DNA from: a virus
Taxonomy: Duplodnaviria; Heunggongvirae; Uroviricota; Caudoviricetes
DNA: 37,934 bases
Reading direction: 5' to 3' (one strand)
IMG/VR virus record: IMGVR_UViG_2534682329_000010
How positions within the stretch are numbered: the first letter of the stretch is position 1; every line of letters starts with the position of its first letter. This document shows positions 24,001-27,000 of the stretch, in pieces. Position numbers: made by a program.

Positions 24001-27000
24001 CAGCCCGTTGCTAACGGGCGACCACACAGATAGCTGAGGGGCGCAAAGGCATACAGCAGCATCAACAGCCAGGCCAGCCATGACATCAACGGTTTATGTC
24101 TTGAATCACGACGACGATAAAAGAAGAGCGTCAGCACGATAACCGTGCATAACGCCACATTCAGCAATCCGGGAAGGTTACTTAACATTGCCGCCTCCTC
24201 CACCCCGCAGGCGGGAAAACAGGCCGGACACCAGCGATGCAATATCCTGCTGGTGGATGAACGAGAGAATCTTCACCGACACCACTGACACCAGTACTGC
24301 ACACAATGCGTCAACAGGTGCACCGTTAAACTCTGTGTGCTTTACCAGCCAGGATGCCAGAACCTCTGCCCCCAGCACGCCGATAATGAACGACACCAGA
24401 AAATGCGCCGCCACACGCCAGGCTGAAAGCGCCTGCGGCATCGTTGCCACAAATAACGCCCCGGCGAACGCACCAAACACAATCCCGAAATCCGTTCCGG
24501 TAAACAGCCCGAATACCGTCGCCCCGCCGAGCGCCGCAGCCGTGCCGGAACCGGATAAGGGTTCAGACATACATTTTTCTCCTGTAAATAAAAAAGACCA
24601 CCAGCGAGCCATAAAAAACTGCTCACATTACCTGTAGGTTCATCTATTGATATCCTTTACGCTCTTAAAGATGGGACTTTACTGAGAATTAGTTAAATAA
24701 GGTGTTTACTGATTTATTAAGTCGCTAATCACCAGCCTGGCATCATAAAAACTTACACTATCAATTATTTCCCTGTTATCTCTGTCCCGATTGACACCTC
24801 TCAGAGAAAAACACACGGTAAGTAACGAGCCAAAGGCACTAATGCGGTCTCTTACACTTACCTGGGGCACTGGCAAATCAGGAATAACCCCAGAATTTGA
24901 TTCGGTCCTCAGACTGACATAACGAGCATTAGATGTGCCAACCCCATCAGTAACAACACTATTAAATCTGTCGTAATTTAACTGAACAGCTTCAACAATG
25001 TTTTCAGTAGGTATCATCTCAACAGCAACTAATTCACTTTGCTCATGCATCATTATCTGTTCAAATGAGTTAAAACTCACACCCCTGCGTGATAAATATG
25101 AAACAGATGGAGCAAGACTATAAAAATTTTCATCAGCCCTGATACGATATCGATACATCACTCCATGAAACAATGAGCTGGAATAATACTGGCGAGCAAT
25201 ATTATATGTTTCGTTAATATCTGATGTTGTGGCTATAAAAGCACTGTCCCGGCTACCTGCAGCACAAGAGTCTCCCCTGATGTGTTGCTGAAGATTTCTG
25301 TTTGATCCATGTGCGGTGAATCCATCTCTGAAAATAACATCGGGAGGTCGGGAATCAACTCGATAAACAAACTCTACAGCATGTGAAGTTATACTAAAAA
25401 AAAATACAATCAATGAAATTAATTGACATATAGCTTTATTCATAGTACGAAGGACCAAAGCATGTGTTATTATTTGCGCATGTGGATAAGCCTACCAACG
25501 CATTTCGTGTAAAAACGGAATAAAACTTATCGTATGTCCATACATTGCTCTTAACATATAATCTTATTTTTTGTCCGGTAGAGTAAAAAAATCGAGCCTG
25601 TGAAAATAATGTCTCATAGGAATGCCCCCAAATGCTTTGCTTTTGAATGGAACATGCAGATATGGTTTCATTGTTATTAAGTTGTGCTTTTATACAAAAA
25701 TATGGACTTTGGTCAATTTGTCCAACATGCATGTCTGTAATCACAGCATTAGAGTAGAAATCATTTGCCACATCTCCTGTCCATTCAGCCTTCACAGCTC
25801 CGGAAAAGAAAACGAAAGTAGTAAGTAAGATCGAGAGAACTTTTTTCACACACTATTCCTGCAATATAATATCAACACTAAACAATCATTCACACATATT
25901 CATAAAACTCATTAACGCACCCTGGCAATTTTGACTTCATAGTCATTATGATTCTCGGTGTTAAATATAATGAATCGTGCCTCTTCTGGAGCAAAACTTT
26001 CCGACAAAACAAGACGATTATTATAACGAGCAAGAACGTAATACCAAGTATTCTCATAGTGGATCGTCTGATATTCCCTCTTAAACTGGGGTTTATACCA
26101 ACCGGCAATAAGAGAGAATGTCCAGAAATAAATCATGAATCCAGCCATAATAAACTCAATTCGGTGATGGCGAATAAAAGACACTTCCGAAAAACATTTG
26201 ACTGAAATAAGTCTTCTTCCTGACCTGACAAAAAGCGTAATTGTAAAGGCAGCAATAACACAAAAAAACAGCACATCTGGCTCAACGTGCTGATGAATTA
26301 CCGAAAACTCCAGAACAGGCGGAATAAAAAGCAGCAATATTGCCAGAAAAAGTCTGATAAAACTCAAATTCTGTATATTGTTTTTTTGTTTTATGCCTAA
26401 AAAGAAAACAATACCTACTCCCCATCCAGTCAGGAATATTGCGATCACAGTAACAGCATAAAACAGGCTTCTGGCCACATCATCAACGCCAGCTCCCACT
26501 ATCCACCATGGGAAACCATAGTAGAAAGAAGTTCCCCAGCCATAAAAGTAAGCACTCCCCCACCCAAGACAGCCCATATAAGCGATAAAAAGTGAGGAGT
26601 TTCTGAGCAGAGTATTGTCGTTCATCGCCATCCCTGTAACAACTTAAAAACATTCACTCAACTTACATAACAAACAAGAATCCACATAGTCAAGGGGTTT
26701 CAGGGCAGGAAAAATTCATTGCGCAATCACCATCACATTTAACGTACCATCTCGCTTTTCGGGTACAAAAAACCCGCTCAGCGGCGGGTTTAAGCTATGT
26801 GGCAAAGTAACCACTCTTAACAGGATATTCAATTTTTTACGATCGTAAAGCGTCGTGTGATTTTTTTCTTCTCTCAAAGCTGCATCAGCCTTTCCACCAG
26901 TTGCTCTTTACGGGCAACTATCCAGCCGCGTTGTTCCAGATAAAATTTGAACCGTTCAAGAGTGCATACCATCGCATCGGCGGGTACTTTTTCCGTGAAG

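Follow-up and report, generated by a model that had tools for sequence, protein, structure and literature searches.

Introduction

In phages that carry the DT104 artAB, Stx or LT-II genes, the toxin cassette stands between the antiterminator gene Q and the lysis genes, is transcribed late, and its product is released by phage lysis (PMC9732031). The viral DNA analysed here (IMG/VR record IMGVR_UViG_2534682329_000010, 37,934 nucleotides (nt), hereafter the window) is an Escherichia coli lambdoid prophage whose early region is 99.9% identical to an E. coli chromosome over 8.4 kb, and its ArtAB-like toxin genes lie in the same late-operon slot, upstream of two holin genes and a GH108 endolysin gene. 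Between Q and the toxin genes lies tfpB, which encodes a membrane protein of the Pfam family PF27470 (“TfpB”) and is the subject of this study. The likeness to the Stx, LT-II and ArtAB cassettes is a feature of the neighbours and not of TfpB, and most such toxin phages lack tfpB. Phage Rac-SA53, for instance, shows the same order of Q, toxin genes (eplBA), two holin genes and endolysin gene without tfpB; its eplBA genes stand with the B subunit first, as in the window, and it also has LT-IIa after the endolysin gene.

TfpB has relatives of its own. Phage 434 encodes a “putative membrane protein” (CPT_434_68, OL657226) with 56% amino acid (aa) identity to the window's TfpB, in the same place behind Q and with the same leader, and E. 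coli prophages encode post-Q “hypothetical proteins” (e.g. WP_000342820 and WP_024166254), alleles 74–89% identical in IMG/VR loci, with the same place, terminator and leader. Unlike the window, these relatives have tRNA genes, a methyltransferase gene, TerB/TciB or a SASA esterase gene downstream and no ArtAB-like toxin. Moraxella TfpB (261 aa in M. bovis) shares with the window's protein the N-terminal pattern AYxYGWG...YGYPWW...IARSL, five hydrophobic segments and a C-terminal beta region (YYIL...), but its gene lies in an invertible pilin segment beside piv, whereas the window's gene lies in the late region of a lambdoid prophage. We infer that the Pfam name TfpB derives from the open reading frame (ORF) of this Moraxella pilin inversion system. 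We know of no function for Moraxella TfpB, and common membership transfers no mechanism to the window's protein.

We consider it likely that the window holds a member of the TfpB family at a fixed place behind Q, with variable cargo following it, and that the toxin genes are a separate insertion.

The window carries an ordinary member of the TfpB family, judged by sequence

The sequence-only reading had described an ORF of 239 aa at 25912-26631, just upstream of a pltB-like gene in an AT-rich stretch, and this was found exactly so. It had recognised no family, which no longer holds: the protein falls in phrog_1521 and in PF27470, itself uncharacterised. The gene and its parts are as follows.

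25912..26631, minus strand: tfpB-family gene (PF27470 / phrog_1521), 239 aa as called from an ATG, 237 aa from the conserved start at 26625
26635-26631, minus strand: AGGGA, Shine-Dalgarno-like, 5 nt upstream of the tfpB ATG at 26625
25912..26022, minus strand: divergent 3′ end of tfpB (codons ~204-239), hypervariable beta-domain loops, from allele comparison

The phrog_1521 profile matches TfpB with E 1.9e-86 (residues 19-239 on profile positions 1-221 of 222), and precomputed Pfam assignments place this very protein (on an ENA contig) and every listed homologue in PF27470. A Pfam and NCBIfam scan of the window gave no match for TfpB, the Pfam copy used lacking the PF27470 model, and a Pfam scan of all 54 aligned members returned noise only (DUF2070, E 0.09; bPH_10, E 0.045). 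Alignments and AlphaFold 2 (AF2) modelling show the shared architecture of the family, namely a length of ~240 aa, five hydrophobic helices, a C-terminal beta domain and the motifs AYxYGWG, PWW, ARSL and YF. On these alignments the window's gene is an ordinary TfpB-family allele whose C-terminal tail is unusual. No relevant publication on TfpB, the Moraxella gene, phage 434B or PF27470 came up in literature searches. A PilB paralogue of Acinetobacter, also named TfpB, was considered and is unrelated to the PF27470 protein.

The family is narrow, a profile search of 1.84 billion representatives yielding 69 TfpB proteins and a scan of 100,044 species genomes yielding 25 confirmed tfpB loci. In the Enterobacteriaceae, where prophages and plasmids carry it, tfpB occurs in E. 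coli, E. albertii, Salmonella arizonae and diarizonae, Citrobacter, Klebsiella, Enterobacter, Cronobacter and Yersinia; beyond them, it lies on chromosomes of Pasteurellaceae, Neisseriaceae and Moraxella. Among the 5,426 complete genomes of E. coli, at least 1,134 (~21%) have the gene. Because only three of 50,697 deposited phage genomes carry it, we regard tfpB as dispensable for lambdoid phages.

Truncated or frameshifted copies are common (P0073, P0074, P0096 and many fragments of 144–197 aa), which suggests frequent inactivation. Avibacterium avium has tfpB fragments of 94–199 aa beside intact 240-aa copies. Short contigs assigned to the Firmicutes, from metagenome-assembled genomes of Veillonella (L104) and Lachnospiraceae (L105), carry a phage-434-like Q, tfpB and tciB, with TciB 98–100% identical to that of phage 434; these tfpB stretches almost certainly stem from an E. 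coli prophage and entered the bins as contamination.

tfpB keeps its place behind Q while the cargo downstream varies

In lambdoid prophages of E. coli, Q and the late terminator are followed first by tfpB, which in most of 80 IMG/VR loci starts ~200–250 nt after Q. Three unrelated types of Q precede it (a 273-aa type, a Q82-like type and the 131-aa type of the window), and phage 434 and the loci L002 and L003 show this arrangement too. The cargo downstream varies and comprises tRNA genes, a 65-aa ORF with a DNA methyltransferase gene, TerB/TciB, a SASA esterase gene or directly a holin gene. Between tfpB and the lysis cassette lie 0.7 to >5 kb with unrelated genes. In 20 of the 5,426 complete E. 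coli genomes, tfpB is followed by tRNA genes (Ile, Arg, Arg) and stx2a/d/g/k (e.g. NZ_CP076704.1, 2652533-2654956), and the gene marks a minority lineage of Stx2 phages. A further locus (L011) has the same Q-ORF6N backbone with neither tfpB nor toxin genes. tfpB is a stand-alone single-gene module with no conserved partner.

The region between Q and tfpB is conserved along with the gene, and its elements in the window are the following.

26767..26790, minus strand: intrinsic terminator, AACCCGC-cgctga-GCGGGTT followed by a T-run
26632..26766, minus strand: conserved tfpB leader
26693-26688, minus strand: −35-like TTGACT, at least 90% conserved in 43 distinct leaders
26670-26665, minus strand: TTTGTTATG with −10-like TTATGT, TTTGTTATG at least 90% conserved in 43 distinct leaders

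Lambdoid loci with the three Q types have the same hairpin ~130 nt before tfpB, where one would expect the late terminator tR′, and the annotation of phage 434 marks a terminator there. A scan of the leader against Rfam found no known RNA family. Its −35-like and −10-like motifs possibly make the leader element a candidate promoter. Transcription of tfpB would occur by read-through from the late promoter and possibly, in lysogens, from the conserved leader.

This position also bears on another explanation, namely that TfpB, as the product of the first gene on the Q-dependent late transcript, conditions the envelope in lytic growth, for instance by adjusting lysis timing or by blocking re-injection by progeny into lysing cells, and is not expressed in lysogens. 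The place behind Q and the terminator, kept in most of the 80 loci and with three Q types, is what such a function would lead one to expect, the leader fails the criteria for a sigma-70 promoter, and tfpB is always co-directional with the lysis genes. Homologues outside phages (Avibacterium, Neisseria, the Moraxella pilin locus and a Salmonella plasmid), the 0.7 to >5 kb to the lysis cassette, the lack of a holin or antiholin match and the presence of tfpB in just three of the 50,697 phage genomes argue in the other direction, and we regard a purely late function as unlikely.

A role of TfpB as holin, antiholin or other lysis-cassette protein was rejected: the protein matches no holin family of Pfam, though both neighbouring holins were recognised, its distance to the lysis genes is variable, and it has non-phage homologues.

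tfpB shows no linkage to ArtAB-like toxin genes in the genomes searched

Directly downstream of tfpB lie the two toxin genes, the gene for the B subunit first and overlapping the second gene by 23 nt (25436-25458).

25436-25849, minus strand: artB/pltB-like B subunit gene, with a GTG start 62 nt after the tfpB stop (NF038397 AB5_pltB_like, E 1e-49)
24706-25458, minus strand: artA-like ADP-ribosyltransferase A subunit gene (Pertussis_S1, E 2e-17; NF011803 ArtA, E 3e-82, below its cutoff)

The sequence-only reading had proposed that tfpB encodes a new accessory factor co-acquired with the toxin genes, on the ground that it shares the composition of their AT-rich island. As a dedicated partner of the ArtAB-like toxin, TfpB would serve in its release, its assembly or in self-protection. 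The arrangement in the window invites this explanation, with tfpB co-directional with artB, 62 nt ahead of it and within one AT-rich stretch, as does the identical arrangement in a second IMG/VR contig (L024); other homologues adjoin Stx2 (contig L027 and the 20 E. coli genomes) and cdtABC (Glaesserella parasuis).

To measure the linkage, a blastn query consisting of tfpB, its leader and both toxin genes was run against the 5,426 complete E. coli genomes, of which 1,227 gave matches. Because the best single place covers 52% of the query, none of these genomes has tfpB and ArtAB-like genes adjacent to each other. The toxin genes alone match 93 of the genomes, and the difference to the 1,227 matches of the joint query gives the minimum of 1,134 genomes with tfpB. 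Genomes that hold both genes have them in separate prophages (e.g. EC9682, where tfpB lies at 2.10 Mb and the toxin genes at 2.23 Mb). All six toxin loci sampled (eplBA of phage Rac-SA53, the four chromosomal classes L007-L010 and plasmid p1054c) are without tfpB; in five of them, the toxin genes follow immediately after Q, and in p1054c the upstream region is cut by insertion sequence (IS) elements. Conversely, 78 of the 80 IMG/VR contigs with a tfpB homologue show no match to the toxin queries, and the only one with ArtAB-like genes is L024, which is 100% identical to the window. The 25 species-representative tfpB loci gave no match to ArtA or ArtB either.

Contig L027 (UViG_2778260991_000005; 7148-8424 and 10572-12482) carries Q, a tfpB homologue with 88% identity and both subunits of Stx2 (RIP and SLT_beta domains). 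About 2 kb past Stx2 lie a SubB-like gene, a subtilase gene (Peptidase_S8, 343 aa) and a second SubB-like gene, so that this late region holds two different AB5 toxins.

The composition of the locus is no better guide to common origin. A trough of 35–44% guanine plus cytosine (GC) surrounds tfpB, against 51% GC for the whole window; tfpB homologues, however, have 33–41% GC in loci of 42–52% GC whatever their neighbours, toxin or none. Because tfpB is AT-rich in every context examined, the shared AT-richness is no sign of co-acquisition, and the argument from island composition falls. The proposed accessory factor fares likewise, given that the co-occurrence search found no joint place in 5,426 genomes and no tfpB in six of six toxin loci, the very lack of linkage that the sequence-only reading had named as grounds for refuting it. 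The alternative offered at the same time, an unrelated moron (an extra prophage gene acquired independently), is favoured by the lack of toxin linkage and by the stand-alone nature of the family.

Judging from synteny and from what is described for such cassettes (PMC9732031), the ArtAB-like genes would owe their expression to the Q-dependent late transcript, and the holin/GH108 lysis cassette would release the toxin. The classic slot between Q and the lysis genes would thus account for both expression and release, and the cassette would need no special membrane partner. With tfpB occurring moreover as a lone gene in toxin-free chromosomes and plasmids, a dedicated partnership with the ArtAB-like toxin appears extremely unlikely. 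On the genomic comparison, the toxin genes are an independent insertion in a slot shared with other cargo, and TfpB is very probably no dedicated toxin partner.

tfpB has a conserved start and is under purifying selection

The conserved start of tfpB is the second ATG, at 26625 (residue M3), where at least 90% of the 43 distinct leaders have an ATG, whereas the first ATG of the ORF is not conserved among them. Most homologues are 237 aa long, and the Shine-Dalgarno-like AGGGA is placed 5 nt upstream of the second ATG; translation probably starts there, giving 237 aa. Between the window's gene and close alleles, codons 1-200 show 0.26 synonymous (dS) and 0.013 non-synonymous (dN) substitutions per site (dN/dS 0.05), and the corresponding ratio of polymorphisms (pN/pS) is 0.18–0.20 over codons 12-210 of 25 distinct alleles. 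By these substitution patterns, tfpB is a real gene under purifying selection.

The 3′ end behaves differently, with a dS of 0.86 and a dN of 0.47 in comparison with the nearest alleles. The last 36 residues encoded by the window's gene match no other allele, and a search for a donor found no close one. This end looks like an intragenic mosaic or a region of relaxed constraint. Positive selection in the C-terminal loops was considered and rejected, their pN/pS of 0.5 indicating relaxed or diversified sequence and not a ratio above 1.

A decaying hitch-hiker with no current function would leave many truncated and frameshifted copies and hypervariable C-terminal loops, both of which are seen. 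Set against a dN/dS of 0.05–0.2 over 200 codons, the invariance of residues 12-60 and 172-188 in 25 E. coli alleles, the conservation of the non-coding leader and the retention of the family across four bacterial families, this explanation is barely credible.

Within the gene, a run of seven A residues (A7) lies at 26381-26387 on the minus strand (codons ~81-85, inside AAAACAAAAAAAC), and the database variants P0074 and P0096 lose their frame exactly at this run. Such frameshifts may stem from slippage-prone on/off switching or from sequencing errors at the homopolymer. Also within the coding sequence, at 26269-26292 on the minus strand, is a terminator-like hairpin with a T-run (CAGCACGTTGAGCCAGATGTGCTG TTTTTTTG), present in L028 as well. 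It may be a chance occurrence or an internal attenuator passed only by Q-modified polymerase.

TfpB is predicted to consist of five helices and a small beta domain

AF2 modelling on 23 close sequences gave low confidence (predicted local distance difference test (pLDDT) 60), and a model on the alignment of 54 sequences with distant members included was used in its place (pLDDT 83, predicted template modelling score (pTM) 0.78). The latter predicts five long helices (residues 12-38, 49-80, 91-113, 118-140 and 157-183) and a C-terminal domain of ~55 aa with five beta strands within 186-237, bearing out the initial description of about five to six transmembrane (TM) helices with a soluble C-terminal domain.

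Across the 54 sequences, the count of lysine and arginine residues (K+R) is 1.6 at the N-terminus, 2.6 in loop 2 and 3.0 in loop 4, compared with 0.7 in loop 1 and 0.4 in loop 3. Because of the positive-inside rule applied to these short-loop counts, the favoured topology has the N-terminus inside and the C-terminus outside (N-in/C-out), which would place the beta domain in the periplasm. Conservation concentrates on the face that would be periplasmic in this topology. No variation is found in residues 12-60 and 172-188 among the 25 E. coli alleles; TM3 and TM4 vary, as do two loops in the beta domain. Family-wide, only Y28, G177 and Y197 are invariant in the 54 sequences, with A17, A27, Y30, G33, G39, P41, P104 and F169 nearly so, and the family alignment contains neither conserved catalytic or cysteine residues nor any invariant polar residue.

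A Foldseek search with the model against PDB and BFVD gave no match at E ≤ 0.001, and a sequence profile search of PDB gave none either. The weak Foldseek matches (MscS, integrase-CTD and KorB-C) suggest that the C-terminal domain could be a small SH3-like barrel. Because no polar residue is invariant and there is no structural match, TfpB would bind rather than catalyse and is probably a non-enzymatic binding protein.

A polytopic envelope-modifying enzyme (acyltransferase, PAP2 phosphatase, O-antigen ligase or polymerase, or CPBP protease) was considered and rejected, as there is no invariant catalytic polar motif and no Pfam hit in the 54 members.

Homologues outside lambdoid prophages stand in varied neighbourhoods

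A tblastn search with the window's TfpB against M. bovis CCUG 2133 found the homologue with 28% identity over residues 3-236 (E 2e-22). The gene lies between two inverted pilin 3′ segments, co-directional downstream of one of them and inside the invertible segment. In M. lacunata, tfpB lies between the IS110-type piv and the pilin gene and is truncated (L124, 5998-6585; 195 aa compared with 261 aa in M. bovis).

In Avibacterium and Neisseria, tfpB stands as a lone gene among housekeeping genes, and in Salmonella it occurs on an IncFII plasmid. In Klebsiella, it is found beside SRAP, umuDC-like, reverse-transcriptase and resolvase genes. K. pneumoniae (L012, 5274-11107) has a divergent tfpB subfamily between the SRAP gene and the umuDC-like pair, and one Klebsiella strain has a 495-aa reverse transcriptase inserted beside a resolvase at the tfpB site. 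The Klebsiella site looks like a variable, defence-island-like spot.

In Glaesserella parasuis CCUG 3712 (L116, 5974-9017), a tfpB homologue with 26% identity is convergent with cdtA, a cdtB-like gene and cdtC, across a gap of ~250 nt. CDtoxinA domains are present in both CdtA and CdtC; the ORF between them gave no Pfam match at E 1e-3 and contains the motif NLxxYxVATWNLQGSS, which we take to be CdtB-like.

The Moraxella context raises the further possibility that TfpB is a helper for exported surface or secreted proteins that mature in the periplasm. The pilin context is confirmed in both M. bovis and M. lacunata, the most conserved parts of TfpB would be periplasmic in the favoured topology, and tfpB recurs beside multi-subunit toxins exported by Sec. 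Most members of the family, however, have no such neighbour, conserved catalytic or cysteine residues are lacking, and the M. lacunata copy is truncated to 195 aa, so that we judge this explanation quite improbable. Its broadest form, in which the whole family would be a general periplasm-facing helper for Sec-exported virulence proteins assembled in the periplasm, is highly improbable; if true, it would explain the ArtAB, Stx2 and cdtABC neighbours and the phase-variable pilin genes of Moraxella, and the window's TfpB would aid assembly or release of the ArtAB-like toxin.

Other features of the late region

The remaining genes and RNA elements around tfpB are listed here in the direction of transcription.

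28479-29528, minus strand: DUF968 gene
28095-28466, minus strand: RusA gene
27719-28114, minus strand: antiterminator Q (Phage_antitermQ, E 3e-52; 131-aa type)
27639-27691, minus strand: c4-a1b1 target, just under threshold
27602-27678, minus strand: isrK Hfq-binding small RNA (74 bits)
27490-27574, minus strand: C4 antisense RNA (76 bits)
26874-27455, minus strand: ORF6N antirepressor-like gene
24178-24612, minus strand: holin gene, Phage_holin_8 (Pfam)
23910-24242, minus strand: holin gene, Phage_holin_3_7 (Pfam)
23363-23908, minus strand: GH108 endolysin gene with PG_binding_3 domain (Pfam)

The genes for isrK, the C4 RNA and the ORF6N protein stand directly after Q, within the late-promoter region. 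Their order resembles the antQ-isrK-anrP arrangement of Gifsy-1 and the c4-ant arrangement of P1 immI.

Possible role of TfpB

Several observations weigh against the interpretation of tfpB as a gene of fixed place, unconnected with the toxin genes behind it, and against the role that we derive from it. The exclusion role would call for expression in lysogens; the leader element has a poor −10 motif and fails a sigma-70 scan, and a position just after the terminator would fit a late-only gene equally well. The topology call depends on short loops, and the C-terminal domain is basic (~10 K/R), which makes the opposite orientation possible. The co-occurrence data come mainly from complete E. coli genomes and IMG/VR, and tfpB homologues do adjoin exported virulence proteins in several independent contexts, namely ArtAB here, Stx2 in 20 genomes, cdtABC in G. 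parasuis and pilin in Moraxella. TfpB has no structural relative in PDB or BFVD, and no annotated relative provides a function, so that the role in exclusion or immunity considered below derives from architecture and context. A PADLOC match to AbiC (E 0.003), limited to TM segments and to three of the 54 members, was rejected as compositional.

TfpB would insert through five TM helices, with the N-terminus in the cytoplasm and the C-terminus outside. The periplasmic face would then show a near-invariant aromatic loop (GFPWWxVGxGxDxxARSL), the end of TM5 (GWYKPQFK) and the SH3-like beta domain. P22 SieA, T4 Imm and HK97 gp15 are inner-membrane exclusion proteins of prophages. TfpB resembles them, as a functional analogy only, in being a small, stand-alone, prophage-borne, probably non-enzymatic inner-membrane protein in an accessory slot, but it has no sequence or fold similarity to them in any library used. 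Comparison with known defence and exclusion families through PADLOC, PHROG (hits without function), PDB and BFVD likewise gave no match. Because the type of protein and the slot fit such a role, we tentatively put forward, as the likeliest single role, that TfpB protects the host at the level of the envelope, by superinfection exclusion or by immunity against a membrane-acting agent. Protection would come about by occupying or blocking a component of the inner membrane or periplasm.

What the window adds is an allele with unique C-terminal 36 residues in a family that is already catalogued and uncharacterised. In at least 1,134 of the 5,426 complete E. coli genomes, a member of this membrane family opens the late operon, with a leader of its own and under strong purifying selection. 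Should the exclusion or immunity role prove true, TfpB would be an undescribed single-gene protection protein present in about a fifth of E. coli genomes.

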